Notes: generated by a model from the letters alone, not told the origin. A stretch of 64,000 nucleotides of DNA from Microgenomates group bacterium (GCA_049303675.1 JBAQNJ010000001.1:135494-199493); one strand, 5' to 3'; positions 1 to 47,303 are shown, counted from the first letter of the stretch. Made by a program: numbers and translations.

Positions 1-594
1 AAAATTTTCCTTCACTATTGGTATGTTTCCAAAAAAGTATCCACCTAAGGTAAACAATGACACCCACACTAATCCTCCCCAAAAGTTAAACGAGATAAAT
101 TTCTTATAATCCATCTTTCCCACCCCCGCTACAAATGGTGCAAATGTTCGCACTATTGGTACAAATCGTGCCAACACTATCGCTTTTCCCCCATGTTTAT
201 CGTAAAACGCCTGTGCTTTATGCAAATACTCAGGCTTCAGTATTTTACTAATTTGTAATTCATAATTCATAATTCGTAATTTAAAATTGGGGTCAAATGC
301 TTTTGCCCCAATTTTAAAACCTATCCAATAGTTCACTGTGTCTCCCAAAAACGCCGCCGCCACCATCAATCCCCACAACAACCATATATTAAATGCATTC
401 AAAGAAGCACTCAATGCCCCAGCCGCAAAAAGTAGTGAATCTCCTGGCAAAAAAGGCATTATTACCAATCCAGTCTCCGCAAATATTACCAAAAATAGTA
501 GTCCATAGCTCCAACCACCCATGGTCACTATCACCGCCGCCAAATTTTTATCAATATGCAAAAATAAATTAACCAGATATCTCATTGTATTCAT
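1..594 (-). CDS. DedA/SNARE-associated family membrane protein (C-terminus runs off window start)
   Basis: Reverse translation from ATG at 592-594 gives MNTMRYLVNLFLHIDKNLAAVIVTMGGWSYGLLFLVIFAETGLVIMPFLPGDSLLFAAG..., matching the DedA PFLPGDSLLF signature. The frame stays open to position 1. An NYEL heptamer-repeat insertion sits at 250-287. Confidence 0.75.
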   Translation of the reverse strand, partial: MNTMRYLVNLFLHIDKNLAAVIVTMGGWSYGLLFLVIFAETGLVIMPFLPGDSLLFAAGALSASLNAFNIWLLWGLMVAAAFLGDTVNYWIGFKIGAKAFDPNFKLRIMNYELQISKILKPEYLHKAQAFYDKHGGKAIVLARFVPIVRTFAPFVAGVGKMDYKKFISFNFWGGLVWVSLFTLGGYFFGNIPIVKENF

Positions 595-818
595 ATTTTT
601 TCCCTATCTCTCTTTCCTATATCATTTGCCTGTTTTAGTAAATCTGCCACAATTCCGTCAATTGCCTCTCCTGAATTCAATAAATATTCGCTTCTCCTTT
701 TACCTCTATCTGGCAAAAATGAATACGTATTTGCCATTCTATCTCTTATCGCCACTACTCCCATTGCATTATTAATTAGTTCTTTTTGTTCATCTGATAG
801 TCTTGGTCTCTCTGCCAT
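591..818 (-). CDS. hypothetical small protein (75 aa), ATGA-coupled to the dedA-like gene
   Basis: ORF track. Stop/start overlap (ATGA) with the downstream DedA ORF. No recognisable motif. Confidence 0.35.
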   Translation of the reverse strand: MAERPRLSDEQKELINNAMGVVAIRDRMANTYSFLPDRGKRRSEYLLNSGEAIDGIVADLLKQANDIGKRDREKI

Positions 819-857
819 ATTTCTTATTTTATCAAGTCTCCCTTGTCAAAGGGAGAT

Positions 858-2045
858 TTAGAGGGATTGTAATTTTAAATTCGTAATTAAATCACTATTA
901 ATCCCTTCATATCCCAATGCCCAAAATCCAATCCCCCCAACTTTCGCATTTTTGGCCAATTCAACTTTTAATTTCAGGCTTCTCTCATCTTCAAAATATG
1001 CCTGATGCCACTCATTTACATAATAGTATTCAGTCGTTTTTACGATTCTCTTTCCTATTTTTTTACTTTTTACTTTTGATTTTTGTATTTTCTCCTCCCA
1101 CGCTACCCACGGTGTCATACTCAACTCATCAAACTTTGTACCAGTAAATCCAATACTTTCCGTAAAAAATACTGTCCTCCCATATCTCCCCGCTAGTTGA
1201 GCACTTCCCCAGCTCTCATCAACTGTCGCCCACTCATATCCATAGAGTGGATAAGCCATAATTATCTTCTCAGCCTTCATATTAATTATGGCCATTTTAT
1301 CCACTATTTCCCTCACATTCCTCTCTCCCACCTCCGATCCAATTGGTGCCACTGGACCAGCATAGTCAGCCCCTGGTCGGTGAAAATCATAGGCCATCAC
1401 CACAATCCAGTCCACTACCCCATTCAATGCCTCCAATCTTTCTTTGCTTCCCTTGATAATTGTATTGGCAAACACATCTACCCCTATTTCCCCCCAGCCT
1501 CCCTTCTTAGCATCAGCAAAAAATCTTACAAAGTCGTCAGCCAAGATTCTCTGATTATCACTCATATATTCAAAATCAATATTAACTCCATCATAACCAT
1601 TACTTATTACTACTTCTCGGACATTATTTATCAAATTCTTTTTTGCCACTTCGTCAGCCATAAATTCTTTCAAATCATTATCATCAAACATTTTAATCGA
1701 CAAAATATTTTTTCCACCTGCCTGTTTTACAGATTTCTTAATTTGCAGGTAACTTTCATTATTAATTTTTTTGCTCTGGATATCCCACACTAGGCTCCCA
1801 TCTGTATTTACCTCTATTCCCGAAAATATCAACTGATCAATTTCCTTACCATATATTTTTGTTTTACCAATCATCCAGCTCGGCAAAAACCCCACTGTCT
1901 CCATCTTTTTATCCTCTTTTCTCTGAAAAATATTTCCCAGTCCTAGTGGTGTCAACAGATCCCCACCATCATCTTTTTGCCACTGAAAGAATATCCCCCC
2001 AATTATCAATAATATTATTACCAATCCCCCGATAAATCTTTTCAT
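858..2045 (-). CDS. glycoside hydrolase family 18 (chitinase-like) with N-terminal TM anchor
   Basis: GH18 catalytic motif DGVNIDFEY (DxxDxDxE) and an N-terminal hydrophobic helix. The C-terminus and stop codon are supplied by a repeat element. Confidence 0.75.
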   Translation of the reverse strand: MKRFIGGLVIILLIIGGIFFQWQKDDGGDLLTPLGLGNIFQRKEDKKMETVGFLPSWMIGKTKIYGKEIDQLIFSGIEVNTDGSLVWDIQSKKINNESYLQIKKSVKQAGGKNILSIKMFDDNDLKEFMADEVAKKNLINNVREVVISNGYDGVNIDFEYMSDNQRILADDFVRFFADAKKGGWGEIGVDVFANTIIKGSKERLEALNGVVDWIVVMAYDFHRPGADYAGPVAPIGSEVGERNVREIVDKMAIINMKAEKIIMAYPLYGYEWATVDESWGSAQLAGRYGRTVFFTESIGFTGTKFDELSMTPWVAWEEKIQKSKVKSKKIGKRIVKTTEYYYVNEWHQAYFEDERSLKLKVELAKNAKVGGIGFWALGYEGINSDLITNLKLQSL

Positions 2046-2072
2046 CCCTCTATTCTACCAATATATCTTAGT

Positions 2073-2321
2073 TTACCTATTCGCATAGGCCCACAAGGCG
2101 GCTCTCAATTTATCTGCATATTGTTTACCCACTATAGTTGCTGGTTCACCTTCCGCCTCAATATACAAAGCTGTATCTGTAGAAAACCTTTTTTTAAGTA
2201 ATCTTGCCTCGACCAAAGACGCCTCTACTGTTTCCGCTTCAGCTCTTCTCGCCACTCGAACGTCAGTCACCCTAGCCGATCTTTTACCCACATCTTCCAT
2301 TATTCTTAATGTTTTTGACAT
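2073..2321 (-). CDS. hypothetical protein (82 aa)
   Basis: ORF only. Arg/Ala-rich with no motif recognised. Confidence 0.3.
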   Translation of the reverse strand: MSKTLRIMEDVGKRSARVTDVRVARRAEAETVEASLVEARLLKKRFSTDTALYIEAEGEPATIVGKQYADKLRAALWAYANR

Positions 2322-4405: not shown

Positions 4406-5314
4406 CTATGCCTTTTTCAAAAACATTTCAACCACTAGTTTGGCCACATTAATTTTGGTAGATTCTTCAAATCCCTTAAACTGACACTGTCTATTTACTT
4501 CCAAAATATAGCTCTTATCGCGCTCATCCTTCATAATGTCCACTCCACAATAATCCAGTCCACATACTTTAGCCACCTTTTCCGCCAACATTTTATCTGT
4601 CTCTGACAACTTGTATGTTTCCACTTCACCCCCTAGGCTATAATTACTTCTAAATTCCGCCCCTACTGCCGATCTTTTCATCCCTCCTATCGCTTTCCCA
4701 TCCAGCACAATCACCCGTATATCCCAACGTGTCGGTAAATACTTTTGCCACAGGAACATTCCTATATTCTTCTCATTTATTTTTTTGACAAACTTTTTTT
4801 CTGCCTCCCAGTTATCAAACTTTCGTACCGACTTACCCTGATACCCTTTTTCATGTTTGGCAATTATTGGCCATCCCCAAATATCTCCCCCCATATTGCC
4901 ATTTAATATTTGTTCTTTTGTATAAAAAATATTTGTGGGAACAATTGGTATGTTATTTTCAATAAACACTCCATGTTGGCTAATTTTCCCCATTCTGGTC
5001 CAGTTCAAATATCCCTCATGATTAGCACAAAATATTTCTTTTTGTAACAATCTTATCGCCAAATTTCTCCCCTCAGTATACTTTCCCGACACTGTCCCCG
5101 CCACTCGGAACCACATACCGATACTATTTTCCTTCGTTACCTCCACCCCTTTTACCAACACTCTTGGTTTTTCATTATTGAGATCAAATGTCATGTCTCG
5201 GTACAAGGCCCGATTCACCTCCACTCCCAACTTCTTGGCCTCCATCTCCAGCCTATCTACCTCAAACTGACTTTGTTTAAGCGACATGGTAAAAGTGACA
5301 ATTTTGCGATTCAT
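4406..5314 (-). CDS. RimK-family ATP-grasp ligase (alpha-L-glutamate ligase-like)
   Basis: ATP-grasp motifs: KHEKGYQGKSV, GGMKRSAVGAEFRSNYSLGGEVE, CGLDYCGVDIM...LEVNRQCQFKGF (RimK-like). Confidence 0.75.
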   Translation of the reverse strand: MNRKIVTFTMSLKQSQFEVDRLEMEAKKLGVEVNRALYRDMTFDLNNEKPRVLVKGVEVTKENSIGMWFRVAGTVSGKYTEGRNLAIRLLQKEIFCANHEGYLNWTRMGKISQHGVFIENNIPIVPTNIFYTKEQILNGNMGGDIWGWPIIAKHEKGYQGKSVRKFDNWEAEKKFVKKINEKNIGMFLWQKYLPTRWDIRVIVLDGKAIGGMKRSAVGAEFRSNYSLGGEVETYKLSETDKMLAEKVAKVCGLDYCGVDIMKDERDKSYILEVNRQCQFKGFEESTKINVAKLVVEMFLKKA

Positions 5315-5347
5315 ATATATAGTATATTTTTAAACTTTATAAACTTT

Positions 5348-6442
5348 TTAACTTTCAACTTTTAAACTCGAAAGAAATAATACTATTTCTTTTGGTACAT
5401 CGATTCCCGTCGCCTGCATAAATCCCTTAAACTGTGGCCCCTTATTTACTTCCCAAATTACCGGCTTGCTCCTATCAAAATCTCTAAATGCCACATCTAC
5501 CCCTGCCACCGCCAATCCACATACCCTTGCCGCCTTTACCGCCAATTGTTTTATCTCTTCTGGCAAATCGGCTACTTCCACCGCGCCACCAGCACTATAA
5601 TTATTTCTAAACTCACTCTTATTCTGTGACGATCTCTTCATTACTCCCAGTACTTTTTCTCCCAACACCAGCACTCGATAATCCCCATCATTAGGTATAT
5701 ATTCTTGCAACATATATCTTTTTCCTTCTTCCGTCTCCGACTTTCTCAGTTTTCTTACCAACTCTTCCATTTCCTCTAAATTATCCGCTTTATACACTCT
5801 CGTCCCTCTGTCCCCCCCACTACCTTTTACTATCACCGGAAAAATAATCGACTCGCAGTCAATAAATTTTTCGCGCGCAGTCACCTGCCCGTCCGGCAGG
5901 CGGGTCTGAGTGGCGTTCGTACGAAGGCGCGAGCACGAAAAATTTTGTTGACGAGAGTCGTCACTATTTTTCATCGTTTCATACAAATACCACAAGCTTC
6001 CATAAATCGTTTTAGGCACATCTATCCCCGCCTTCTTCAAGGCCAACATTTGATATGCCTTGCAAGCCATACTCGGCTTGCCGTTCAAAATAATCGGATC
6101 AACAATTATCGGTTTTTTCTTTAATTCGTAATTCGTAATTTTTAATTCGTAATTAATTAGATCCACCTCTTCCCAGTGTTTTCCGGTTGTTCTAAAAAAT
6201 AACACATCATAATCATTTATTTGCAGCCATCCCTCATTTTTAATTGTACGGGCGGTCCCTTGTGGCCGCCCTTCTAAATTTCCCCTAATTTTAACTCTCA
6301 GCTCAGTCGTATCAAAACACACCCGATTATATGACACCAAATCCAATCTCACTCCCAACTTTTTGGCCGCCTTTTTAATCAGCACCAAATGCTGACTAAT
6401 CTTCCCTCCAAAAAATAACGCTATTTTTGTTTGATTTTTCAT
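5348..6442 (-). CDS. RimK-family ATP-grasp ligase carrying two in-frame repeat insertions
   Basis: VIVKGSGGDRGTRVYK, EFRNNYSAGGAVE, CGLAVAGVDV...WEVNKGPQFKGF. Insertions encode INYELKITNYELKK (6121-6160) and a 95-nt GC-rich hairpin segment (5870-5965). Confidence 0.7.
   Translation of the reverse strand: MKNQTKIALFFGGKISQHLVLIKKAAKKLGVRLDLVSYNRVCFDTTELRVKIRGNLEGRPQGTARTIKNEGWLQINDYDVLFFRTTGKHWEEVDLINYELKITNYELKKKPIIVDPIILNGKPSMACKAYQMLALKKAGIDVPKTIYGSLWYLYETMKNSDDSRQQNFSCSRLRTNATQTRLPDGQVTAREKFIDCESIIFPVIVKGSGGDRGTRVYKADNLEEMEELVRKLRKSETEEGKRYMLQEYIPNDGDYRVLVLGEKVLGVMKRSSQNKSEFRNNYSAGGAVEVADLPEEIKQLAVKAARVCGLAVAGVDVAFRDFDRSKPVIWEVNKGPQFKGFMQATGIDVPKEIVLFLSSLKVES
5870..5965. repeat. 95-nt GC-rich multi-hairpin insertion inside the second ATP-grasp gene
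   Basis: cgcgcgcagtcaCCTGCCcgtccGGCAGGcgggtctgagtggcgTTCGTACGAAggcgcgagcacg. Strongly GC-skewed relative to flanks. Read in-frame as SRLRTNATQTRLPDGQVTAREKF. Confidence 0.65.
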
Positions 6443-6545
6443 AAAATATTAAAAAATATATCGAAGCCATCTTTTTCTAGCGACTTTGAACGTGGGCGAC
6501 CACATTCACCGGAGCAAGAAAAATGGTGGCGAGAATTATTTTTTA

Positions 6546-7958
6546 TCATATTTTTTTAGCACTAATCAAAAACCCCTCCAAATCTTTACGTCCCAATAAA
6601 AATTTTGTCCTCAATTTATTTCTATCCGCCACATTCACTGCTGTTGTCACCTTCTTCCCATTCAACCAAAATGTTGCCCCCACCACTGGCCTGTCCTTGT
6701 TTTTACCGAGACTCGATCGATAATGTCGATAATACAGTACTCGACTCCCTTCCATCAATCCCAACTTTTCCGCCAAAGTTCGATCAATTGAACTCCTAAA
6801 CGCCCCCGTATCAATTTTTGCCCTCACCTCTACTACCCTATGTTTTCCTAGTTTCAATATTGGACTCTTACTCATGTTTGGCCTAAACCCCTTAGGCACC
6901 TTTACTTTAATTATTTCAATTGGTTGAACTGTTTTAGTCCGCTCTTTTTGTTCTACCTTCTCGAAAAAGCTTTCTCCAAACAAATACTTGGACAATGTCA
7001 CAGCATGGTTAGTACTCCTTACGTCGATATCTTCCACTTTATCCATTCTAGCTTTCAGTCCGGCTTTATTACAAATTTGAATCGACAACCCAGGTCGTGA
7101 ATTTACTTCTAGTACCATTGGTCCCCGTTCTTTATCCAACACTACATCTACTCCCAAAAAGCCTAGGCTGGGTATCGCTTTCTGACTATTCACCGCCGTT
7201 TCCAAAATTTCTCGCCACAGCGGTACTTTTATTCCATTTACTTTTATCCATTTCTTTTTGCCATGATCATATAGTTTTTTTATTTCCTCGCCCTTACCCT
7301 CAATTCCAAAAGTAGTTATTCCTGTGGCCAGATCTACCCCTAGTCCCATCGCTCCCTGCTGCAAATTGGCTTTGCCGCCACTTTTCTCTGTTGGAATTCT
7401 AAACATCGCCATTACTGGCACCCGATTATAAACAATCACCCGAATATCTGGTGTCCCCGATTTGGTAATAGCCAAAAACATTGGATGAATCTTGATCCGC
7501 TCTTCTACCAACACCCCATCTCTCATCCCATGAAGACTATATTTACCCACCAATATATCTCGACAATGATCTTTTATTTCCTCCACCGTTACTGTCTTCC
7601 CATCCATCATCTGCCATTTCAGTTCTTCCGACTCAGTTTTAGTTTTTAAATTTGAAATTTTAAATTTTAAATTTTTTAATTGTCTTCTGACGATTAAAAT
7701 TCCCTCTCCCCCATATCCCGATATTGGCTTGATTACAAAATTTCCTTCCAGTTTTTCCCACTCAAATCTATCAACTCCTTTTTCACTTCTAATTCTTTTA
7801 ATCAATTTGGGCACACTTACCCCTGCCTCATTCAAAATATTCTTGGTTCTGTATTTACTATCAGCAATCGACCGACCCTCCGAACTATTCTTCCTTAGGT
7901 ATACCTTATTTCTCTCATTCTTGGTCAAAAATTGCTTATATTGTTTTAAATTAAACAT
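6546..7958 (-). CDS. ATP-grasp ligase (RimK-like) fused to C-terminal retropepsin-like domain (PF05618/DUF785-like)
   Basis: N-terminal ATP-grasp (VIKPISGYGGEGILIV, QQGAMGLGVDLATG, VLEVNSRPGLS). The C-terminus VVEVRAKIDTGAFRSSIDRTLAEKLGL...ATFWLNGKK resembles the RimK-associated aspartyl-protease-like fold. An AATTTGA-repeat insertion encodes KNLKFKISNLKTK. Confidence 0.65.
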   Translation of the reverse strand: MFNLKQYKQFLTKNERNKVYLRKNSSEGRSIADSKYRTKNILNEAGVSVPKLIKRIRSEKGVDRFEWEKLEGNFVIKPISGYGGEGILIVRRQLKNLKFKISNLKTKTESEELKWQMMDGKTVTVEEIKDHCRDILVGKYSLHGMRDGVLVEERIKIHPMFLAITKSGTPDIRVIVYNRVPVMAMFRIPTEKSGGKANLQQGAMGLGVDLATGITTFGIEGKGEEIKKLYDHGKKKWIKVNGIKVPLWREILETAVNSQKAIPSLGFLGVDVVLDKERGPMVLEVNSRPGLSIQICNKAGLKARMDKVEDIDVRSTNHAVTLSKYLFGESFFEKVEQKERTKTVQPIEIIKVKVPKGFRPNMSKSPILKLGKHRVVEVRAKIDTGAFRSSIDRTLAEKLGLMEGSRVLYYRHYRSSLGKNKDRPVVGATFWLNGKKVTTAVNVADRNKLRTKFLLGRKDLEGFLISAKKI

Positions 7959-7984
7959 TTTCTATACTTAATACCTAATACTTA

Positions 7985-8743: not shown

Positions 8744-8842
8744 AAAGTGAGGGGAAAATTATTAACTTAATTGAGCGTATTATAGCATCATTTTACCACA
8801 GTCAACACCTCAAATTTTTACGGTAAACAAGGCATTATTATC

Positions 8843-8883
8843 GGTAATTCGTAATTCGTAATTTTTAATTCGTAATTTAATTG
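8843..8883. repeat. AATTCGT heptamer tandem array (family R1), promoter-proximal copy
   Basis: ggtaattcgtaattcgtaatttttaattcgtaatttaattg. Homologous arrays at 250-287, 869-888, 6121-6160, 16736-16772, 20513-20546, 21251-21286, 23193-23227, 27526-27557, 30520-30562, 32097-32136 and 47014-47047. Confidence 0.85.
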
Positions 8884-8889
8884 TATAAT
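8884..8889 (+). promoter_or_regulatory. extended -10 (TGTATAAT) only 5 nt before the first pilin ATG, inside an AATTCGT repeat array
   Basis: Sequence ttgtataatcagatATG. Implies a very short or leaderless 5' end. Confidence 0.35.
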
Positions 8890-8894
8890 CAGAT

Positions 8895-9221: not shown

Positions 9222-9222
9222 A

Positions 9223-9967: not shown

Positions 9968-9969
9968 TT

Positions 9970-10362: not shown

Positions 10363-10395
10363 TAATTATTTATTTATTGTTATAATTTATTCAAT

Positions 10396-10773: not shown

Positions 10774-10792
10774 GGTATTTTCTTCAAACTCA

Positions 10793-38341: not shown

Positions 38342-38349
38342 TTCCCAAA

Positions 38350-40959
38350 TTATACATTACCAAACAGCTTATCGTAATCCATATTTGGCGCATTATTCTG
38401 GTTACTTACTGGTTTATTGTTATTTGGTAATTGGTCATTGTTTGGAATACTTGGAACTTGGTCTATTGGTTTATTTTCAAACACAGGAGTTATTTTTTTG
38501 GCAAACTGTGGCGGTTGGGGTATTTTTACCTCTTCCTTTGGCAACGTTACAAAAGTGGGCTTATTACCTTGAGGTTGTACAACTTCAGTTTTAACATCTC
38601 CCTTGTCAAAGGCGTGTGGTCCCAGAAGTGGGAGAGAAGCCGCCGTAGGCGGAGAGGGATTGAATTTTGGTGCTTCAAACTTAGGTAGGGGAGGCCCTTG
38701 GCTCGCCGGAGCATTAAATTTTGGCAAAGGCGGCAGTGGTGGTAATTTATTTTTGTTGATAAACAAGTCTTGATATTTTGGTAGCGACCCAAATCCACCC
38801 AAAGTACCCTGCATTTTTTTCTTCTCATCCTCAGCTTTATTTTTTTCTGCCGTTTCTACTTCAACCTTTTGTTTATGTTCATCAACTTTTATCTTTTCCG
38901 CTGCTTCCATTTCTTCAATTCTTTTTTGCAAATCATTTTGTACCACCACTTCTACTTTTGGTGGAGCGACTATCTCAACTTTTGGTATTTCTACCACAAT
39001 TGGTTGGGCCACAGCTATCGGGATAGTTGGTTTATTAGTAGGTGGTATTTCCCCAATTGGCTTTTGAACAATATTTTTTACAATCTCACTTACCGAGGTT
39101 GTATTTATACTTTCAACCTTTGTTTTAACGTTTGTATTTTGAGTTTTGAATTTTTCCAGTTGTGCCTTCATCCTCATTACTTCCTCTGGATTTGAAGTAA
39201 TTAGTTTATGTTCTTCCTCCGAGGCCACTACCCTTATTGCCACATGATTTTGTCCGGCAAAAAATATTCCCTCCCCCTTGTCCGCCGACAGCAGTAGTTG
39301 TTTTTCCCCTTCACTTAGGTAAAAAACTTCTCCAATCTGATCTATGGCAGCGCTGTGTTGTTTCAGTAGTATTTGAATAGCACTGTTAGTCACTATCTCT
39401 TTTCCATAAGCTGTCTCCAAAAAGTCGTCCACATCTTGAGTAATTGTGGTCACACCGAGATAATACTTTCTGCCTCGCTTGACTATCCCACGGAGGAACG
39501 CTGCCGAGTCTGGATATTGCATCAAATACCATGCCTCATCCACCACCAATATCCTTCGTCTCATTTCTTTTTTCACTACCGTCCAGATATAGTCCAATAT
39601 AATATGCATGGCTACCGGCCGAAGTGAATCTTCCAAATTTTTTATACCAAACACCACAAATTCCGATTTTAGGTTTACAGTAGTCTTTTGGTTAAATATT
39701 CCTGCAAATGATCCCTTAATAAATTTTTCCAATCGGGCTGCCATCATCTGGGCTTGCTTATCCTCCATTCCAATTAGTGATTTATACAAATCCTCAATCA
39801 ATGGTGGCTCCTTAGTCTGAGTCTCTGGATCGGGGGTAATCCCCTTCATTTTATAAGCATCCATTACCGCTCGATCCAATATTGATTCCTCAATTGGATC
39901 CATCTCTCCCATCATTACTTTCAATAGCTTATGTATCCCCAATATTTTTGAATTTAGAGCGTTGTCGCCCTCATCCACCACCAGTGACAGGTCAAAGGGA
40001 TTTATTTTTGAGGCTTCCCCATATCCAAAGGCAATATATTGCCCTCCTACCGATTCGCACAAATCTTTGTACTCATTTTCTGGATCAATTACAATTATGT
40101 CTGTCCCCATCATCAGTGATCTCATTACTTCTAGCTTAATCATGTATGACTTACCGGCTCCTGCGGTAGCAAACACCACCGAGTTATAGTTCTGCATTGA
40201 AAACCTGTCAAAAATAACCAATGATCCATTGTGTTCATTAATGCCATACATTATTCCCTTATCATCCGACAAATCAGAAGATACAAAGGGGAACGTTGTC
40301 GCTAGGGAAGTTGTGTCCATATTTCTCGTTAGGTTTAGCCTGTCAGTCGCAATCGGCAGGGTAGTTATGAAGGCATTTTCCGAGTCATAGGTAGTTTTTT
40401 TGGTTAGCACCATTAGCGCCCCCATAGCTGCTTCCAAGTTTTTAGTCACTCGGTCCATTTCTTCTTTGGAGCTGGCACTCACCGTTATATACAATCCCAT
40501 TTGGAAAAATCTTTCCTCACCTTTTACTAGGTCTGCCTGCAAGTTGAGAGCATCCTCCAATTTTGCCTGTGTTGCCGGATTAACAATTCTACCTCTTTGA
40601 ATATCTGTCGTCAGCTCCGCCTCCATTTCTGTAATTTTTCGACGTAAATCATCTAGTATCTCTTTTCCATCAGAGGGATAAATGTACATCGCTACTGTCA
40701 ATGAGGCGTCAAAATTAATCAGAGTTGATAGCCAATTGATTTCCACAAACCGTCGATTAATGACCGTAAATAAGGTTCGATAATATTTGGTTCCAATTCT
40801 TATAAAATCCGTTTCCACTTCTAGCGCCCCTGGGGCGATAATATCTTTGGTCGACACTAGTCCATCCACAAAATTCCTCTCACTAGGTTTTTTTTGCTCC
40901 ACCACCGGCACCACCGGTTCAGTATTCTTTTTTTTATTTATAATATTAAAAATATTCAT
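38350..40959 (-). CDS. VirB4/TrsE-like T4SS ATPase with Pro-rich C-terminal tail
   Basis: Walker A FATAGAGKSYMIKLEVM and Walker B RRILVVDEAWYLM. The C-terminal tail of about 250 aa is low-complexity and Pro-rich, and contains a GC-rich hairpin insertion (38598-38662). Confidence 0.85.
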   Translation of the reverse strand: MNIFNIINKKKNTEPVVPVVEQKKPSERNFVDGLVSTKDIIAPGALEVETDFIRIGTKYYRTLFTVINRRFVEINWLSTLINFDASLTVAMYIYPSDGKEILDDLRRKITEMEAELTTDIQRGRIVNPATQAKLEDALNLQADLVKGEERFFQMGLYITVSASSKEEMDRVTKNLEAAMGALMVLTKKTTYDSENAFITTLPIATDRLNLTRNMDTTSLATTFPFVSSDLSDDKGIMYGINEHNGSLVIFDRFSMQNYNSVVFATAGAGKSYMIKLEVMRSLMMGTDIIVIDPENEYKDLCESVGGQYIAFGYGEASKINPFDLSLVVDEGDNALNSKILGIHKLLKVMMGEMDPIEESILDRAVMDAYKMKGITPDPETQTKEPPLIEDLYKSLIGMEDKQAQMMAARLEKFIKGSFAGIFNQKTTVNLKSEFVVFGIKNLEDSLRPVAMHIILDYIWTVVKKEMRRRILVVDEAWYLMQYPDSAAFLRGIVKRGRKYYLGVTTITQDVDDFLETAYGKEIVTNSAIQILLKQHSAAIDQIGEVFYLSEGEKQLLLSADKGEGIFFAGQNHVAIRVVASEEEHKLITSNPEEVMRMKAQLEKFKTQNTNVKTKVESINTTSVSEIVKNIVQKPIGEIPPTNKPTIPIAVAQPIVVEIPKVEIVAPPKVEVVVQNDLQKRIEEMEAAEKIKVDEHKQKVEVETAEKNKAEDEKKKMQGTLGGFGSLPKYQDLFINKNKLPPLPPLPKFNAPASQGPPLPKFEAPKFNPSPPTAASLPLLGPHAFDKGDVKTEVVQPQGNKPTFVTLPKEEVKIPQPPQFAKKITPVFENKPIDQVPSIPNNDQLPNNNKPVSNQNNAPNMDYDKLFGNV

Positions 40960-40987
40960 TTTGTTATTTACTGTTAACTGTTCACTG

Positions 40988-41704
40988 TTAACTGTTAACT
41001 GGCTTTGTACTCACCATTGGTGAATCATAATTTAATGAAGATAGTTTTTGGTTGGCCGCCGTGTCTTCGTTATAGATTTTATAAAATAGCTCAATTAACT
41101 CTCTCGTTGTCAGATCTCTTATTTCCAATCCGAGTCGGGAAAACAATCTACTTAAATGATTTTTCTTGGGCTCGAGGGCTGCCTTAGCTTTTTCCAAAAT
41201 ATATTTTTTATCAAAGGGGAGTTCTTTGGATTCTTTTTTAGTGAAATTTGGTATTCCCGAAAACATTTGGGTGGACATACTTTTTATTCCCAGCTCCAAT
41301 ATTGAAAATGGGATAACAATATAAAATGCCTTCGACAAGACGTCGTTTTTCTTTACCGTCTCCTCGATGAACTTTCGATAAGAGGCTATTCTTTCCTTCA
41401 ACAATAGATTGGTTTGTTTTTCTTGAGCGTTTTTTAAATTATTCAAATAAAAAGTTACATCCTTGGTGTTGGAATAAACCACTATTTGTATAGGAAAATT
41501 TAGTGAATTGAGTATTCCCCCATATGAAAAAATCAAGGCTCCCTGTTCTCTTTCTGATAGTAAGTCAAAGTTAACTGAGGATATCTGTAAGATACTCACA
41601 CAAGAACCGTCTTTTAGCAGCACCATTCCATCTACTATGTCTTCAATTGGTAGATGTTCCTGAGTACTGCCTCTTATTGCAATTTTTAATGGGTCAACTG
41701 CCAT
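40988..41704 (-). CDS. T4SS-operon hypothetical protein (238 aa)
   Basis: Lies between the PrgI-like and VirB4 genes. Its C-terminus and stop codon are encoded by a TGTTMAC repeat. Confidence 0.4.
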   Translation of the reverse strand: MAVDPLKIAIRGSTQEHLPIEDIVDGMVLLKDGSCVSILQISSVNFDLLSEREQGALIFSYGGILNSLNFPIQIVVYSNTKDVTFYLNNLKNAQEKQTNLLLKERIASYRKFIEETVKKNDVLSKAFYIVIPFSILELGIKSMSTQMFSGIPNFTKKESKELPFDKKYILEKAKAALEPKKNHLSRLFSRLGLEIRDLTTRELIELFYKIYNEDTAANQKLSSLNYDSPMVSTKPVNS

Positions 41705-41770
41705 AGTTTATTTAACCATATTTCTCTCTCTTTTATTTTTTTTATTTCTGTTAAATTATATTAAATTTTC

Positions 41771-42685
41771 TTAAACTATCGCCATAATCTTTATTGGTTC
41801 TATAGTCTTGCCCATTAGTTCAATTTCCACTTTATCAAATTTCAAGTTTTCCTTTTCAGTAATAATTAAATATTTGCCGTTGGCCAGAGGAGTAGTTGTC
41901 CTAAATTGACCGAGAGAGTTGGTTTTTAGTACCCGACTCGGGTTACCTTTACTATCTTGAATCTCCACAATTGCCCCTTCTACTATCTTACCCTCGGTAT
42001 TTGTCGCCATCCCTACCAGCGTATTAGCTGTCTCCGGTTTGTCAGGCATGGGAATTTCTCCAAACACTACCTTAGCGGTGGCCATGTCTTTTTCAGTTGC
42101 CAGACCCAAATCAGCTTTCTTATTACGCCAATCATCTATTACCACTTCGTTTATTTTTTCTCCAGTTTCTTCACTTTTATTTATTTTTTTGGTGTCCGTC
42201 GCCACCTCTTTTATTTCAGCTCTATTAATTTCCTCACTCTCATTAGCTTTTAATCCAATTTGGACAGTTGGCAGTGAGTCAATAAACTCCCTTACCTTGT
42301 CACGGTCTTTGACAGGTGTTTCTATTTCCTCTTCTGCCTCCAAACTGTGATCTCTCCCCGCCGTTTTACTGTTCATCAGCTCAATCCAGTTTTTATCCGG
42401 CATCTTTTTATAGGTATAAATCGTCGGTGAATATATTGATCTCAAAAATGCAATTAACCACGTTTCCATTGGCCTGTCTTCAAATGGTACAAAAGCCAAC
42501 AGCAACCCGCCTCCACCAAAAATCAACATTAATGGGTACTTTAAGAAAAAAATTAGCCCTGTCGCGTTTATCATTATGGCCAAGATAATTCCTGCCGCCG
42601 CTTTCAAAAATTGTTTTAGGGTCATGTCGCCCACCAGTTTGAATTCGTACGAGCTAATCTGCTGGGGTATCGGATGTTGTTCCAT
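41771..42685 (-). CDS. PrgI/VirB3-like T4SS membrane protein with C-terminal beta-rich domain
   Basis: The N-terminal ISSYEFKLVGDMTLKQFL followed by two TM helices fits the PrgI family. Lies upstream of VirB4. Confidence 0.55.
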   Translation of the reverse strand: MEQHPIPQQISSYEFKLVGDMTLKQFLKAAAGIILAIMINATGLIFFLKYPLMLIFGGGGLLLAFVPFEDRPMETWLIAFLRSIYSPTIYTYKKMPDKNWIELMNSKTAGRDHSLEAEEEIETPVKDRDKVREFIDSLPTVQIGLKANESEEINRAEIKEVATDTKKINKSEETGEKINEVVIDDWRNKKADLGLATEKDMATAKVVFGEIPMPDKPETANTLVGMATNTEGKIVEGAIVEIQDSKGNPSRVLKTNSLGQFRTTTPLANGKYLIITEKENLKFDKVEIELMGKTIEPIKIMAIV

Positions 42686-42738
42686 TACTAAAATTCTATC
42701 CTAATATTCATACTTTATAAACTTTTAACTTTACAAAC

Positions 42739-43692
42739 TTGATAAACTATCACATGTCTCATCTAGTCATCATCGATGGTCACGCTATTGCCCATCGTGC
42801 CTACCACTCTATCCCCCCGCTCTCTGTCAATGGTCAGCCGGTCAATGCCCTCTATGGTTTTTATTCCATGATTCTCAGTGCTCTTGACACTCTCCATCCC
42901 GACTACCTCATTGTTTGTCTTGATTCCGCTGGTCCCAATTTCCGCAATGATGAGTTTGTCGGTTATCGAGCCCAGCGTAAACCAGCGGATTTAGATCTCA
43001 AAACACAGTTACCTCTTCTACCCCAAACTCTTGACTCCGCTGGCATTACCAATTTTGCCATGGGTGGTTTTGAGGCCGATGACCTAATTGGTACCATCGC
43101 GGTTCGATCTCTACGCAAAATTAGAAATAAAGAAAAGTTTATATCTAGAGTTACCATCATCACCGGGGACAAAGACCTCATGCAACTCGTCAACGACAAA
43201 GTTAGTCTTTTTGTCCCAGTCCAAGGATTGTCAGTTACCAAATTGTATGGACCAGACGAAGTCAAAGAAAAGTTAGGTGTCAATCCGTCTCAGGTTGTCG
43301 ATCTCAAAGCCCTAATGGGGGATAGTTCCGACAATTACCCAGGGGTCGAGGGTATCGGCCCTGTCGCCGCCATCAATCTCTTATCCAGCTACCAACATTT
43401 AGATAATATCTATTCAAATTTAGATAAAATAAAACCTACAATTTCTCAAAGACTACTCAAAGATCGCGATAACGCCTATTTATCCCAAAAACTAGCCACT
43501 ATTGTCACCAACATCCCCCTCAAATTCAAGCTATCCACTTCTCGCCTCCGCCGTTCTACCTACTTATCACTTGAAAAATTATTTATAGAGTACAATTTCA
43601 AGTCCTTACTCACTCGTCTCCACTCCAAAAACCCAGACGTTTTCAAAAAAGCAGAGGTCAAGGTAAAATCTACCCAAGCATCTCTATTTTAA
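42739..43692 (+). CDS. 5'-3' exonuclease (stand-alone Pol I N-terminal/FEN-like domain)
   Basis: LVIIDGHAIAHRAYHS, GFEADDLIGT and the H3TH region (DNYPGVEGIGPVAA). Confidence 0.85.
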   Translation: MINYHMSHLVIIDGHAIAHRAYHSIPPLSVNGQPVNALYGFYSMILSALDTLHPDYLIVCLDSAGPNFRNDEFVGYRAQRKPADLDLKTQLPLLPQTLDSAGITNFAMGGFEADDLIGTIAVRSLRKIRNKEKFISRVTIITGDKDLMQLVNDKVSLFVPVQGLSVTKLYGPDEVKEKLGVNPSQVVDLKALMGDSSDNYPGVEGIGPVAAINLLSSYQHLDNIYSNLDKIKPTISQRLLKDRDNAYLSQKLATIVTNIPLKFKLSTSRLRRSTYLSLEKLFIEYNFKSLLTRLHSKNPDVFKKAEVKVKSTQASLF

Positions 43693-43819
43693 AATTTAAA
43701 ATTTAAAATTTATTAAAAATTTAAAATTAAAAATTAAAAATACACCAAAGATAGCTCTCGTTCACGACTATCTCAACGAATTTGGCGGTGCCGAAAGAGT
43801 TCTCTCCGCCCTGTCAGAT

Positions 43820-44845
43820 ATGTATCCGGATGCTCCTATCTATACTGCTTTTTACAAAAAGGGCTCCTCTGCCTACGAACACTTTAAGCATCACCAAATC
43901 ATTCCCTCATGGGTGCACTACATCCCCTTTTTTAGTAGCAAGCTCCACAGCCCCTTTCGCTTTCTTACCCCGCTTATTTGGGGTAGTTTTGACTTCTCAG
44001 AGTACGACATTATTATTGGTTCCGCCAGTTGGTACATTACCAAAGGTTTCAGAAAAGGACCCCAAACCAAGGAAATTTGTTATTGTCACACGCCCCCCCG
44101 TTGGCTTTATGGCTTCAAAACCTCAGTTGGATTTCAAAAATATTGGATAGTCAAGGTTTATGCCGCTATCGTCGGCCATTTTATGAGATTGTATGATTTT
44201 TCTCAAGCTCAAAAAGTCGATGTTTTTGTCGCCAATTCCCAAAACGTCGCTGCTCGTATTCGCAAATTTTATCGTCGCGATTCGGTCGTTATCTATCCAC
44301 CTGTTAGTTTACCTACTTACCCCAAGGTCTCTAGGGAAGACTACTACCTCATTACTTCCCGTATTGTCGGCGCCAAGGGATTGGATCTAGCCGTCAATGC
44401 CGCTCTCAAATTACATCTAAAACTAAAAATAATTGGTGAGCCTGCTGGATACTACACTGAGTATCAGCAACTAAAAAAAATTGCCGGCAACAAAATAGAA
44501 TTTTTGGGTCGCCTCTCCGATGACGACCGGAATCTTTGTTATGCCAAGGCCAAGGCCTTCATGGCACTATCAACCGACGAAGATTTTGGCATTACCCCAG
44601 TTGAAGCCATGCATTTTGGCACTCCGGTAATTGCCTTTCGTGGCGGTGGCTATCTTGAATCTGTAGTTGAAGACAAAACCGGAGTATTCTTTGATGAACC
44701 TACTGTCGATTCCTTAGTCGCTGCCATCAAACGATTTGAAAAACTCAAATTAAATCCTCTTAATTGTGTCAACCAAGCCAAAAAATTTAGCCAAGATATT
44801 TTTATTCAGAAAATCACCGCTCTCGTCAATTCCCAGACCAAATAA
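43820..44845 (+). CDS. GT4-family glycosyltransferase (N-terminus probably starts upstream, near 43745)
   Basis: The C-terminal GT4 region contains EDFGITPVEAMHFGTPVIAFRGGG. The conserved N-terminus KIALVHDYLNEFGGAERV lies in-frame upstream of the first ATG with no canonical start codon. Confidence 0.7.
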   Translation: MYPDAPIYTAFYKKGSSAYEHFKHHQIIPSWVHYIPFFSSKLHSPFRFLTPLIWGSFDFSEYDIIIGSASWYITKGFRKGPQTKEICYCHTPPRWLYGFKTSVGFQKYWIVKVYAAIVGHFMRLYDFSQAQKVDVFVANSQNVAARIRKFYRRDSVVIYPPVSLPTYPKVSREDYYLITSRIVGAKGLDLAVNAALKLHLKLKIIGEPAGYYTEYQQLKKIAGNKIEFLGRLSDDDRNLCYAKAKAFMALSTDEDFGITPVEAMHFGTPVIAFRGGGYLESVVEDKTGVFFDEPTVDSLVAAIKRFEKLKLNPLNCVNQAKKFSQDIFIQKITALVNSQTK

Positions 44846-44857
44846 CTTTGTTTAGTT

Positions 44858-45067
44858 TTATTCCAACGGATATCTTTGAGCAAACACAGCATGGATTGTT
44901 GGGTCTTTTGCTGCCTCTTCTCTTCTTGTTTCTATTTCCTTGGTCCACTCAACTTGTTTCTGTTCAGCACTTTTATCACCATTTGCCATCGCTAGTTCTG
45001 GCATCATTAGCCCACCAGTTAATTCATTTGCTTCAGGAAGTCGCATTGTTTTAAATGACATTATCAT
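44858..45067 (-). CDS. hypothetical small protein
   Basis: ORF only. Confidence 0.25.
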   Translation of the reverse strand: MIMSFKTMRLPEANELTGGLMMPELAMANGDKSAEQKQVEWTKEIETRREEAAKDPTIHAVFAQRYPLE

Positions 45068-45095
45068 ACTATATCACACTTTTTGTCACCCTCCT

Positions 45096-45533
45096 TCATT
45101 TGCTTAATCTTTTCCACACTTCATTCAAAGTCTTATCTAAGGTAATTAGTTCCATCTTGTTTTTTAAACAATAGTCAAGAAGTATTGCGTCAACCATTCC
45201 AATATTCGCGTACTTTTCAAAATATTTTTCTGACGATTCCGAGACCAACCCCATATTATTATCTGTCAAAAAATTCGACAGAATTGTTTTTTTTGATTCA
45301 ATTGCCAACTTCACACCACCTTTATATTTTAAAATACTCAAAGTTTCAATTAATACCAATGGATGAACATAAATGCCAAAACCCCCTTTCCCCAGCTTCC
45401 TAAATATCTCAAGCGCCTTATGTTCCAATCTGTCATCAGGTAAAAATACACCTACCAGCACATTACTATCTATCGCTTTTTGAGAATACTTTTCCATTTC
45501 TATCTGCTCCATATAAAATTCTATCAATTTCAT
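45096..45533 (-). CDS. PIN-domain toxin (VapC-like)
   Basis: IDSNVLV acidic N-terminal motif plus a later D. The real start is probably an internal Met, because the track ORF overlaps the antitoxin gene. Confidence 0.6.
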   Translation of the reverse strand: MKLIEFYMEQIEMEKYSQKAIDSNVLVGVFLPDDRLEHKALEIFRKLGKGGFGIYVHPLVLIETLSILKYKGGVKLAIESKKTILSNFLTDNNMGLVSESSEKYFEKYANIGMVDAILLDYCLKNKMELITLDKTLNEVWKRLSK

Positions 45534-45780
45534 TATTTAATTCCTCTCCAGTAGTTGCCCTAGTTCTAACTATCCCAATCCTCTCCTTAATCAATTTCAC
45601 ATCGGCTAAGAAATCAGCCACGCCATTCGCGCTTTTTTTCGTCAATGACTTTGGATGTTGTGAAAATCTAGCCAAATATTTACTGCCTTTTTTTATGTCA
45701 ATGGTGTGACCCATTTTCAATTTCCCCAAAAACATCGCCATGTTTTTCCTAAAATCTGATACCTGTACTGTAATAGTCAT
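45466..45780 (-). CDS. Phd/YefM-like antitoxin
   Basis: N-terminus TITVQVSDFRKNMAMFLGKL, immediately upstream of the PIN gene. Confidence 0.5.
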   Translation of the reverse strand: MTITVQVSDFRKNMAMFLGKLKMGHTIDIKKGSKYLARFSQHPKSLTKKSANGVADFLADVKLIKERIGIVRTRATTGEELNNEIDRILYGADRNGKVFSKSDR

Positions 45781-45798
45781 TTGTACAAAAATTCTAAA

Positions 45799-46293
45799 CT
45801 ATTTTGTACATTTTGTCAATATCTTTAAGAACTCATTTCTGTTCAGATTAATCAATCTCCCATCTCTGCCTACTTCAGTTTCGGTAATCTCTACTCCCGC
45901 CCATTCTGGAGGTACAAATTTTATGGAGTCTTCTTCATATTCAAACTCAAACTCAGCTCGAATCAGACCATCGTAGTCTCCACCATAAACTTTTATTGAT
46001 ATTTCCGGATATCGTTGCAATACATACGATTTTCTCACCAAACTCCTAATTGACTTAGCTTTTAATCTTTCAAATTCAATCTTTGTAATCTCTTTGATAG
46101 TTTTATTTGCTGCAAACAGCTCACTGCCTGACTTTTCTTCATAAATACATTTGCCACTTATTTTAGTTATTCTTTTCTCAATTTCACCCAGCTCCAAAAA
46201 ATATCTCTCTTGGTTTTCGACTTTTACACCAGTTAAGTCAGGCATCACTTTTACCAAATACTTCCTCTCAATTTCTTTTAAATTATGTTTCAT
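45799..46293 (-). CDS. CYTH-domain protein (triphosphatase / class IV adenylate cyclase-like)
   Basis: N-terminal EIERKYLV signature of CYTH. Confidence 0.7.
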   Translation of the reverse strand: MKHNLKEIERKYLVKVMPDLTGVKVENQERYFLELGEIEKRITKISGKCIYEEKSGSELFAANKTIKEITKIEFERLKAKSIRSLVRKSYVLQRYPEISIKVYGGDYDGLIRAEFEFEYEEDSIKFVPPEWAGVEITETEVGRDGRLINLNRNEFLKILTKCTK

Positions 46294-46322
46294 TCTAGTT
46301 TCTAGAATCCAGTTTCAAGTTT

Positions 46323-47303
46323 CTATTTTTCCCCTATCCACCTCTCGGCATCAATTCCAGCTCTACAGCCATCACCAGCGGCCGCAATCGCCTGTCGGTA
46401 GATATCATCGACATTATCTCCCGCGGCAAAAATTCCCTCAACTGATGTCATTGTCCGATATTTTTCATTTTTCCCCACTACTACATGTCCACTTTCTTTT
46501 AACTCCACCACATCTTTTACAAATCCCGTCGCCGGATCATGCCCCACCGCCACAAACAATCCATCCACCGCCATTATTTTCTCCTCCCCAGTCTTGTTAT
46601 TTTTTATCTTAATATTTTCCAGTTTCTCGCCTGTGCCCATTTGGGTATTTCTAGTTTCCAGTTTCGAATTTATTTCCACCACTTCCGAGTCCCACACTAT
46701 TTCCATCTTCGGATTCCCTTTTATTTTATTAGCCGTATCTTCTAGCATTCTAAATTTATCTCGCCGATGAATCACGTACACTTTTGTGGCAAATTTAGCC
46801 AAAAACAGTGCATCTTCTCCGGCCACATCTCCTCCACCCACTACGGCTACTATTTTATCTCGGAAAAACATCCCATCGCAGGTCGCACACGCCGACACTC
46901 CCTTACCGATTAGCTCTTTTTCGTTTGGTAATCCCAGCCACCTCGCCTTTGCTCCCGTGGCAATTATTACTGCCTTTGTTTTGAGCGTTTCCCCACTATC
47001 TAGTTCTACTTCAATAATTCGTAATTCGTAATTTTTAATTCGTAATTGTTTTACTATCCCATTTCTTATCTCTACCCCCAAATTCCTCACCTGTGCCTGC
47101 ATGTCCATCATTAGTTTAATTCCCCCTATTCCATTGGCAAATCCGGGGTAGTTGTCGACTACTGTGGTCAATGTCAGTTGACCCCCAGGCTGGTCCCCGC
47201 CCAGTACAATTGTTTTCAGATTAGCCCGTATGTTGTATATTGCCGCCGTCAACCCCGCAGGTCCCGACCCGATAATCACTGTGTCATAAACATTTTCATT
47301 CAT
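46323..47303 (-). CDS. trxB: thioredoxin reductase
   Basis: GSGPAGLTAAIY FAD site, redox CATCDG and NADPH GGGDVAGEDA. Carries in-frame insertions IKNYELRII and SKLETRNTQ. Confidence 0.9.
   Translation of the reverse strand: MNENVYDTVIIGSGPAGLTAAIYNIRANLKTIVLGGDQPGGQLTLTTVVDNYPGFANGIGGIKLMMDMQAQVRNLGVEIRNGIVKQLRIKNYELRIIEVELDSGETLKTKAVIIATGAKARWLGLPNEKELIGKGVSACATCDGMFFRDKIVAVVGGGDVAGEDALFLAKFATKVYVIHRRDKFRMLEDTANKIKGNPKMEIVWDSEVVEINSKLETRNTQMGTGEKLENIKIKNNKTGEEKIMAVDGLFVAVGHDPATGFVKDVVELKESGHVVVGKNEKYRTMTSVEGIFAAGDNVDDIYRQAIAAAGDGCRAGIDAERWIGEK

Follow-up and report, generated by a model that had tools for sequence, protein, structure and literature searches.

Tandem repeats of 7-nt units have been known in bacteria since 1990, and their origin and function have long been a puzzle; the short tandemly repeated repetitive (STRR) heptamers of heterocystous cyanobacteria were reportedly described by Mazel in that year. 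Rickettsia palindromic elements (RPEs), which occur in-frame at surface positions of conserved proteins in a reduced genome, are palindromes of ~100-150 bp with stable stem-loops, and the ribbon-helix-helix (RHH) repressor omega (pSM19035) occupies heptad operators of consensus WATCACW, one dimer per 7 bp and in either orientation. Here we analyse a 64,000-nt stretch of DNA from a Microgenomates group bacterium (GCA_049303675.1, JBAQNJ010000001.1:135494-199493; hereafter the window), in which short arrays of an AATTCGT heptamer are dispersed through promoter or leader regions and protein-coding genes. The genome is ~1 Mb, belongs to the candidate phyla radiation (CPR), and has Candidatus Shapirobacteria as its nearest relatives.

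Among described systems, the TAACTGA repeats of Beggiatoaceae, cyanobacteria and Bacteroidetes lie a few nucleotides before start codons without Shine-Dalgarno (SD) sites, carry stops in all forward frames, and occur reversed inside open reading frames (ORFs) at the edges of proteins (MacGregor 2015, PMC4679880). The window arrays resemble them as tandem 7-nt sets (2 to 6 units in the published family) ahead of SD-less starts, with reversed in-ORF copies at protein edges, including a glycosyl hydrolase C-terminus, and with a patchy spread over phyla. They differ in the unit, which is AATTCGT or another AATT-phased heptamer, in the ~1-Mb CPR host and in a module nearly fixed at 32 nt. Moreover, about half of the window copies are coding and sit in internal loops of housekeeping enzymes, not only at termini, and the copies lie on one chromosome strand whatever the direction of the gene, instead of "forward relative to the downstream gene". 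Heptamers have been reported as the commonest long simple repeats in prokaryotes, with polymerase slippage as the proposed source (Mrazek 2007, as cited in PMC4679880 and PMC4692102). STRRs and long simple sequence repeats (LSSRs) share with the window arrays their period of 7, dispersed loci, several unit families per genome and a preference for heptamers; unlike them, they are described as mainly intergenic and variable in length, and we found no report for STRRs or LSSRs of strand polarity, a fixed module size or genome-wide replacement of units at orthologous sites. The GGGAATC repeats of Xanthomonas and the GGGGAYT repeats of Nostoc (PMC4692102) are intergenic arrays near the starts or ends of genes, and turn over in length and sequence at conserved positions among close relatives, but they are G-rich, quadruplex-capable and present on both strands, whereas the window arrays are AT-rich and essentially unstructured.

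The literature that we searched holds no description of the AATTCGT repeat sequence or of such heptamer repeats in CPR. The class itself is nevertheless not new, as heptamer repeats at starts and reversed in ORFs are known for TAACTGA (PMC4679880) and AATTCGT arrays occur in many phyla. What is apparently new is the strict strand polarity, the fixed module size, the genome-specific units at orthologous sites and the entry into CPR housekeeping enzymes. Overall, this is a known class of repeat and an unusually regular example of it in a CPR genome.

Period-7 arrays and their repeat class

In the window, 23 exact matches to AATTCGTAATT were found over 13 loci, on the plus strand only, where dinucleotide shuffles gave 0.07; the AATTCGT heptamer alone has 31 matches against 10.4 expected. 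A scan of periods 3-12 returned 28 arrays at period 7 and at most 4 at each other period, and 60 second-order Markov simulations gave a mean of 0.43 period-7 arrays with a maximum of 2. These counts bear out the earlier claim of a dispersed heptamer family far above chance. Tandem Repeats Finder (TRF) and the period scan put the number of head-to-tail copies at 3.7-4.9 per array. The AATTCGT consensus proposed in the first-pass annotation belongs to a wider set of (AATTNNN)n arrays, whose AATT cores are spaced exactly 7 nt apart and which includes AATTTGA/AATTCGA arrays at 7649, 20990, 26759 and 26899, and the copy at 27350 is a single unit. Exactly five cores (32 nt) are present in 11 of the ~17 AATT-phased arrays. 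At 6123-6154 this module is laid out as AATTCGT, AATTCGT, AATTTTT, AATTCGT and AATT; the interrupted 32-mer, AATTCGTAATTCGTAATTTTTAATTCGTAATT, is identical at three loci (6123, 8846 and 47016) and near-identical at three more. Perfect, uninterrupted (AATTTGA)4 arrays occur in Wzy only. Unrelated heptamer families (ATACTTA/TACTTAC, CTGTTAA, TTCCAGT/TTCTAGT and TTTTTAC) coexist in the window.

Low complexity arising by chance in an AT-rich genome, or an assembly artefact, has the base make-up in its favour (40% GC, with a plus strand T/C-rich throughout: T 33%, A 27%, C 25%, G 14.5%), together with the location of some public-contig arrays at contig ends. It is refuted by the counts above and deserves practically no credence: long ORFs stay open across the arrays, related arrays stand at orthologous sites of independently assembled genomes, and arrays are present in finished isolate genomes.

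When the window repeats were aligned, neither inverted ends nor target duplications were seen, and the flanks are not conserved. The Pfam-scanned window ORFs and the gene calls of the source record include no gene for a transposase, reverse transcriptase or HUH protein, nor was a transposase or HUH domain found in the genes of related loci, and Rfam at gathering threshold gave no match at the arrays. Tandem 7-nt units, the excess at period 7, dispersed loci, several unit families and enrichment in non-coding DNA place the arrays in the heptanucleotide simple-sequence repeat class (STRR/LSSR). A mobile repeat of the miniature inverted-repeat transposable element (MITE) type, or of the type of repetitive extragenic palindromes (REPs) and their RAYT transposases, was also considered and rejected, as there are no terminal inverted repeats, REP hairpin or target duplication, and no transposase among window and related-locus genes. 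The arrays share with RPEs an in-frame position in conserved proteins and absence from orthologues (TrxB, RimK-like, Wzy, RNHCP and DUF4012); however, they are 32-nt direct repeats with no hairpin and no conserved flanks, and the RPE parallel drawn in the first-pass annotation is an analogy only, inverted ends and a nearby transposase being absent as well.

Non-coding and coding copies

Non-coding DNA makes up 11% of the window (89% is coding), yet it holds 6 of the 13 AATTCGT loci (p = 0.0014):

8846-8877, plus strand: intergenic array, the same 32-nt module as at 6123; ends 17 nt before the ATG of the first type IV secretion system (T4SS)-pilin gene (8895, plus strand), with a TATAAT box in between.
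16736-16766, plus strand: array before the DUF6909 gene (ATG at 16773, plus strand), ending 6 nt before the ATG; the final unit provides TAATTA, a -10-like hexamer.
20513-20544, plus strand: two AATTCGT units, then AATTAAT/GATTAGT/AATT, between the FtsH start (20487, minus strand) and the stop (20587) of the upstream minus-strand gene.
21251-21282, plus strand: array bridging the gap between two minus-strand genes, overlapping the RNHCP start codon (21253) and the DUF4012 stop codon (21281).
30522-30553, plus strand: 32-nt dnaA-leader array, ending 9 nt before the dnaA ATG.
32097-32135, plus strand: dnaA-dnaN spacer array; the spacer is AT-rich and variable, three DnaA boxes precede the array, and dnaN follows 143 nt downstream.

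Four of these six arrays stop 6, 9, 17 or 25 nt short of a start codon, and one (21251-21282) overlaps a start codon plus the preceding stop codon. All six had been described as lying immediately upstream of starts; this is correct for most, which are beside start codons, but not for the array at 32097, which belongs to the spacer that follows the DnaA boxes. A Shine-Dalgarno motif is not evident upstream of the listed starts, several of which are TTG or GTG, and many genes carry a TAnAAT box ~5 nt before the start codon; the closeness of these boxes to the starts suggests widespread leaderless mRNAs.

The dnaA gene (30563-31921), DnaA boxes at 30427, 30450, 31934, 31955 and 31967, and dnaN (32279-33403) form a classical dnaA/DnaA-box/dnaN arrangement. 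Upstream of dnaA, two DnaA boxes are followed by a promoter-like block kept in at least one relative, then by the array and the ATG, and the array probably lies inside a leader of ~45 nt. The array at 32097-32135 lies in an AT-rich spacer beside DnaA boxes, a position that might suit the DNA-unwinding element of a replication origin (oriC); the relatives L126 and L127 have no array there. GC skew (~-0.3 overall and ~-0.5 at third codon positions) nevertheless keeps its sign across dnaA-dnaN, both in this genome and in four relatives. The skew may change sign at some other place, where the active origin would then be, or else it is set by something other than bidirectional replication starting at the dnaA site. 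Four of five AATTCGT leaders fold at -0.2 to -3.7 kcal/mol (z-scores 0 to +1.9), a mild and no more than suggestive trend towards leaders that the arrays make unusually unstructured.

The non-coding copies raise the possibility that the arrays are operator-like heptads bound by a predicted protein, by analogy with omega, whose regulon would comprise dnaA, the origin region, FtsH and the pilin operon, with the coding copies as by-products. As in omega operators, contiguous 7-bp units stand in promoter regions, several per array. Six copies lie in promoter or leader regions, including those of dnaA and the DnaA boxes; the AATT cores keep a strict 7-bp phase, which is the spacing of the established one-dimer-per-7-bp mode of omega, and the fixed five cores cover ~3 helical turns. 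Heptamer repeats near Nostoc start codons, in addition, affect reporter expression or promoter activity (preprint 10.1101/2022.06.06.494920). However, the consensus differs from WATCACW, half of the copies are inside genes, and orientation to the downstream gene varies, with the AAUUCGU sense before plus-strand genes and the AAUUACG sense before minus-strand genes. The same promoters in relatives carry an unrelated heptamer or no array, so that conservation is lacking where a regulator would depend on it, and the downstream genes have no common functional theme. An operator function would thus be an improbable explanation of the family.

The other 7 of the 13 loci are coding, all in minus-strand genes, a share above what is described for STRRs. 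Host genes were assigned by Pfam (GH18, RimK-like, DUF4012, Wzy_C, TrxB, RNHCP, DnaA and DnaN) and, for DedA, by translation of the left end; the gene assignments of the first-pass annotation agree with these, and the NYEL peptides that it quoted match the translations. Coding copies and their sister arrays are as follows:

250-288, plus strand: six cores (AATTTGT/AATTCAT/AATTCGT) in the DedA ORF (minus strand, running off the left end); encodes NFKLRIMNYELQISKI.
871-888, plus strand: short array of three cores in the GH18 protein 858-2045 (minus strand); C-terminal tail, aa 386-392 of 395, LITNLKL.
6123-6154, plus strand: 32-nt module in the RimK-like ligase 5348-6442 (minus strand); aa 97-107, NYELKITNYEL.
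7649-7673, plus strand: sister array AATTTGA/AATTTTA in the ATP-grasp_ST protein 6546-7958 (minus strand); aa 96-104, NLKFKISNL.
20990-21021, plus strand: sister array AATTTGA/AATTCGA in RNHCP, 32 nt; aa 78-88, EFRISNFEFQI.
23193-23224, plus strand: 32-nt array in the DUF4012 protein 21281-24265 (minus strand); aa 348-358, NYEFKITNYEI, in a variable E/K-rich linker.
26759-26790 and 26899-26930, plus strand: twin perfect (AATTTGA)4 AATT arrays in Wzy loops, identical and 32 nt each; both encode NFKFQISNFKF.
27350-27360, plus strand: lone unit plus AATT core in Wzy; aa 71-75, LITNW.
27527-27555, plus strand: N-terminal tail array, Wzy_C protein 26292-27572 (minus strand); aa 6-16, KITNYELRITS, +9 aa versus L124 and L125.
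47016-47047, plus strand: 32-nt module (same as at 6123 and 8846) in TrxB 46323-47303 (minus strand); aa 86-96, QLRIKNYELRI, at a beta-hairpin tip of the FAD domain.

Consistent orientation and frame of the coding copies had been offered as evidence of insertion, a point that fails on both counts. On the AATTCGT strand, three units read AAT TCG TAA, and since 21 nt span all frames there is a TAA in each, which forces the orientation of coding copies. The AATTACG strand is stop-free in every frame, and because 3 x 7 nt equal 7 codons all frames give a rotated heptapeptide NYELRIT. The frame offsets of the six scorable coding copies are 0, 1, 0, 2, 2 and 2, that is, all three frames are used.

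Comparison with orthologues, a check suggested in the first-pass annotation, shows that the coding copies were added to conserved proteins in a lineage-specific way and at variable loops, as distant orthologues and solved thioredoxin reductase (TrxR) structures lack them. Relative to those structures, loop 1 of TrxB is longer by 4 aa and loop 2 by 11 aa. Among 36 TrxB orthologues (64-100% identity), the loop-1 NYEL segment is present in the window protein and P0021, decayed in P0025 and found in no others, while NYEL in loop 2 occurs in P0004, P0021, P0031 and P0073 and not in the window protein, whose loop 2 is encoded by a GAAACTG array. In the DNA of three relatives, loops 1 and 2 are heptamer arrays of differing units (AGTTACG, AAATTCT and CCAATAA). 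In an AlphaFold model of TrxB (mean predicted local distance difference test score, pLDDT, 83), residues 84-91 and 96-101 form a beta-hairpin with pLDDT 85-88, and loop 2 is disordered. The RimK-like array follows WEEVDLI in a variable loop, where the shortest orthologues are ~9 aa shorter and NYEL-type peptides are confined to the closest ones. Wzy has three insertions of 9-12 aa each relative to four orthologues, and the L125 site orthologous to its lone unit at 27350 holds a two-unit array (ITNYKLIITNWKK). The RNHCP array takes the place of a hairpin and adds 2 aa versus orthologues; in several cases an existing hairpin is replaced by the array and not simply lengthened.

In the peptide of an AATT-phased array read stop-free (AAT-TNN-NAA-TTN-NNA-ATT-NNN), polar and hydrophobic residues alternate and two polar ones stand together once in 7 residues, which is a strand-turn-strand pattern. 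We infer from the genetic code that arrays are tolerated in proteins because of this pattern, which is consistent with the TrxB model. A simple DNA repeat can thus repeatedly reshape loops of core enzymes, its AATT-phased unit happening to encode residues that extend beta-hairpins. Segments of the NYEL or NFKF type, as well as the palindrome-encoded segments described below, should be annotated as repeat-derived; they make CPR proteins look more divergent than they are.

Phase variation classically relies on simple repeats within ORFs or promoters (PMC4679880), and the arrays might be retained because a gain or loss of 7 nt switches genes on and off, especially those with surface functions such as Wzy, DUF4012, the pilins and GH18. 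Wzy does carry perfect uninterrupted arrays, (AATTTGA)4 twice, plus its N-terminal array, and many host genes encode envelope or surface proteins. However, other arrays stand where a frameshift would do damage (TrxB, RimK-like, DedA, RNHCP and the dnaA leader). Interruptions (CGT, CGT, TTT, CGT) suppress slippage in most of the coding arrays, and arrays are short, at 4.6 units. The length and unit changes of the heptamers seen in ortholog comparisons are between-species turnover only. That the arrays are contingency loci is therefore very doubtful.

Strand polarity, turnover and the proposed origin of the arrays

The non-coding copies share the chromosome orientation of the coding ones, ahead of plus- and minus-strand genes alike, and every other orientable heptamer family in the window is likewise limited to one strand. 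GC skew at third codon positions is -0.46 in plus-strand genes and, on the coding strand, +0.49 in minus-strand genes (~-0.49 in plus-strand coordinates); the skew is thus alike for both gene directions, indicating an asymmetry of the chromosome strand and not of transcription. Primase trinucleotides, polar signals like Chi or the FtsK-orienting KOPS, and DnaA-trios were considered as the cause of the polarity and dropped, as no motif is common to the different heptamer families.

To place the arrays in their wider context, a 16-mer search for AATTCGT arrays was run over genomes, one per species. It yielded at least 119 loci in Nostocales, Bacteroidota, Ignavibacteria, Acidobacteriota, Chloroflexota and Planctomycetota, a few CPR and one archaeon. 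Three or more perfect AATTCGT units are present in 48 of the 119 listed loci, in genomes of up to 63% GC, and the listed loci hold 314 period-7 arrays against 39-49 at periods 6, 8 or 9. Finished isolate genomes also carry AATTCGT arrays, which are common in Nostocales among the matches listed. In viral contigs, (AATTCGT)3 was found in 57 stretches, against 9 and 8 for two composition-matched permutations and 107 for TAACTGA. AATTCGT is one of the widespread "preferred" heptamers. Among the loci listed from other phyla, orientation is unrelated to local GC or AT skew (22 versus 15 and 29 versus 25) and both orientations are present in 18 loci, so the polarity is a trait of this lineage and not of the repeat.

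Among the loci listed (L002-L120), those of other phyla (e.g., L028, L029, L019, L044 and L101) often have AATTCGT in close inverted pairs (AATTACG...AATTCGT) that could form long hairpins. Arrays there often adjoin other heptamer arrays or GC-rich hairpins, unlike the single-strand arrangement in this CPR genome.

Relatives were compared at four syntenic dnaA loci and one RimK locus. The dnaA leader carries AATTCGT units in the window, TTTTTAC in L124 and TTTCTAG in L127; the dnaA-dnaN spacer has AATTCGT in the window, AATTAGT in L125, AACTATT in L124 and none in L126 and L127; and the DUF4012 linker has AATTCGT in the window and AATTAGT/CATTGGT in L125. In the GROS21 genome (L125 and L128), the RimK loop, the DUF4012 linker and the dnaA-dnaN spacer are all AATTACT/AATGACM, compared with AATTACG/AATTAAA in the window. 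The GROS21 RimK array is also 32 nt long, and L123 has two identical 32-mers of its own variant. Judged from these sequences, the position of an array is conserved and its sequence is not, and the arrays of one genome evolve together. Different heptamers at orthologous sites fit turnover in place better than a discrete inserted element.

Taken together, we lean towards the view that these are heptanucleotide simple-sequence arrays of the STRR/LSSR type with a 7-bp-phased AATT core, and not a discrete mobile element. Arrays would arise and change in 7-nt steps via slipped-strand or template-switch events at replication. Copying from one array to another, through template switching or gene conversion, would keep those of a genome similar; the phased AATT cores may supply the microhomology for this, and we propose that the same chromosome orientation of all copies stems from a tie of this copying to one replication strand. 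Arrays would persist where they do little harm: in the AT-rich stretch upstream of SD-less starts, mostly at promoters of leaderless type; in the variable dnaA-dnaN spacer; and in surface loops, linkers and termini, there in the stop-free orientation only (AATTACG on the coding strand), where an (AATTNNN)n array would give 7-residue units such as NYELRIT or NFKFQIS that extend beta-hairpins. If the arrays have a function, it is probably a secondary one that does not depend on orientation. The best candidates would be an unstructured AU-rich leader or promoter spacer, which fits the orientation independence and the very low folding energies of AATTCGT leaders, and an easily melted stretch near DnaA boxes.

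Several observations weigh against this explanation. Independent slippage should give broad lengths and differing interruptions, whereas the window holds identical interrupted 32-mers and a fixed size of five cores, which requires some copying between loci. There are 11 arrays per 21 kb in the window, far more than the 0 to 5 of relatives, a difference suggestive of a burst of spread. The polarity is 13 to 0, where base composition predicts only ~55:45; the window and nine same-clade loci (the source copy L001 and eight from relatives) lie in one skew domain, and a tie of polarity to replication direction would be conjectural. The folding test is weak, other heptamer families having z-scores of -1.4 to +0.6 with no trend. 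The identical 32-mers, the five-core size, the strict polarity and the high load keep the copying of a cassette as the main rival.

According to that rival, a non-autonomous mobile cassette of ~32 nt would be copied from a genome-specific master and inserted, or written over existing sequence, by a strand-specific, replication-coupled process, analogous to RPEs or to elements mobilised as single-stranded DNA. It would account for the interrupted 32-mers shared by three loci and closely matched at three more, for the modal five cores here and in relatives (L123 and the GROS21 RimK), for genome-specific units at orthologous sites, for an array load 2 to 10 times that of relatives and for the strict single-strand orientation; the TrxB and RNHCP arrays, furthermore, replace a hairpin with a small length change (+4, 0 or +2 aa by orthologue). 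Yet the arrays have no inverted ends, hairpin, target duplication or conserved flanks, and there is no candidate enzyme in the 64 kb or in related loci. A length of 32 nt is not a multiple of 3, so in-frame insertion would need a further change. Other genomes have unrelated heptamers at orthologous sites, and among the matches listed the AATTCGT arrays of other phyla run either way and comprise 2 to 12 units. On balance we consider a mobile cassette unlikely, though worth keeping in view.

A transposase-free form of replication-coupled copying may also be imagined, in which a genome-specific heptad template of ~32 nt is written strand-specifically onto existing AATT-containing sequence, overwriting promoter-proximal spacers, the dnaA-dnaN spacer and hairpin tips, with the copies kept in step. 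We rate this speculative scheme as rather unlikely. If it were true, the enzyme behind heptamer repeats would belong to the core machinery and be identifiable, given a ~1-Mb genome with a minimal replication and repair toolkit. Whatever the mechanism, a CPR genome of ~1 Mb leaves few candidate enzymes, and the arrays add constraints on it: they occupy a single strand, use a fixed module of five cores, differ in unit from genome to genome at orthologous sites, and keep their position while the sequence turns over.

Palindromic elements and other repeats of the window

True palindromic elements that are translated in-frame occur in the same genome, with sequences unlike those of the arrays. The Fpg gene (48691-49590, plus strand) contains at 48905-49085 a pair of GC-rich palindromes with double hairpins, CCCCCTTTCCTCAAAGGGGG-TGCCCGAAGGGCA-GGGG and its sister, which are translated in-frame as PLSSKGVPEGQGI and SPPSSRGVPQPREGV. 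Among orthologues, L122 has both palindromes, L121 neither, and L123 a different insert at the second site; these palindromes are the truly RPE-like elements of the genome. In the RimK-like gene, a palindromic GC-rich element of ~110 nt lies at 5840-5974, a 135-nt stretch that folds at -52 kcal/mol. It is read in-frame (aa ~160-195, QNFSCSRLRTNATQTRLPDGQVTAREKF); orthologues read the same element in other frames or are ~40 aa shorter here. A further palindrome family, CTCCCYTTNGTCAAAGRGGG(N)TTTRGRGGGTGATT, is present at 826-870, 21195-21240, 24410-24450 and 24965-25000, with six loose matches in the window, on the plus strand only, against 0.55 expected. Its minus-strand reading is NPSKSPFDKGD or SPPNPSLTKEG. 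One copy constitutes an N-terminal insertion of +18 aa in RNHCP, the peptide recurs in TrxB loop 1 (orthologues P0028 and P0037) and in the RimK loop (P0190), and two copies adjoin AATTCGT arrays.

The heptamer families unrelated to AATT, each in one orientation throughout, are distributed as follows:

7964-10028, plus strand: ATACTTA/TACTTAC family; 7964-7991 is intergenic, 5 nt from a start codon, 9992-10028 is a pilin N-terminus, and a further copy is at 29235-29256.
34029-48687, plus strand: CTGTTAA/CTGTTCA family; 34029-34061, 40967-41002 (7 nt ahead of the minus-strand ATG at 40959) and 48635-48687 (3 nt ahead of the plus-strand Fpg ATG).
11244-52572, plus strand: TTCCAGT/TTCTAGT family; 11244-11279, 12626-12648, 46292-46330 (adjoining the minus-strand ATG at 46293), 46648-46671 (degenerate, in TrxB loop 2) and 52540-52572.

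The CTGTTAA family of the window corresponds to TAACTGT, one mismatch from the published TAACTGA. Six tandem T4SS-pilin (PF18895) paralogues lie at 8895-11217, two of which have hydrophobic N-terminal segments made from T-rich heptamers, TACTTAC giving LILTTYYLLLSTS and TTTTTAC giving ILFLLFTFNFLLFTFA. A second promoter-region repeat, (A)ACTTTATAA(AC), has a period of 8-10 and occurs at 5326-5368, 27185-27221, 32218-32274, 42704-42748 and 47315-47346, upstream of dnaN, TrxB, the first RimK-like gene and a divergent gene pair; its plus strand always has C and never G, regardless of gene direction.

The RimK-like ligase with the array at 6123 belongs to an ATP-grasp cluster (4406-8743) of two RimK-like ligases, a fusion of a sugar-transfer ATP-grasp with a putative zinc/aspartyl protease and a 7TM_transglut membrane protein, which is kept in the GROS21 relative (L128). 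Finally, a 65-nt direct repeat of 80% identity is found at 53591-53655 and 54984-55048. One copy encodes the C-terminal cupredoxin motif (FSCWMGMISGTIEVV) of a DsbD-like protein; the other lies 1.4 kb downstream, which suggests that this second copy is a gene fragment or the remnant of a paralogue.

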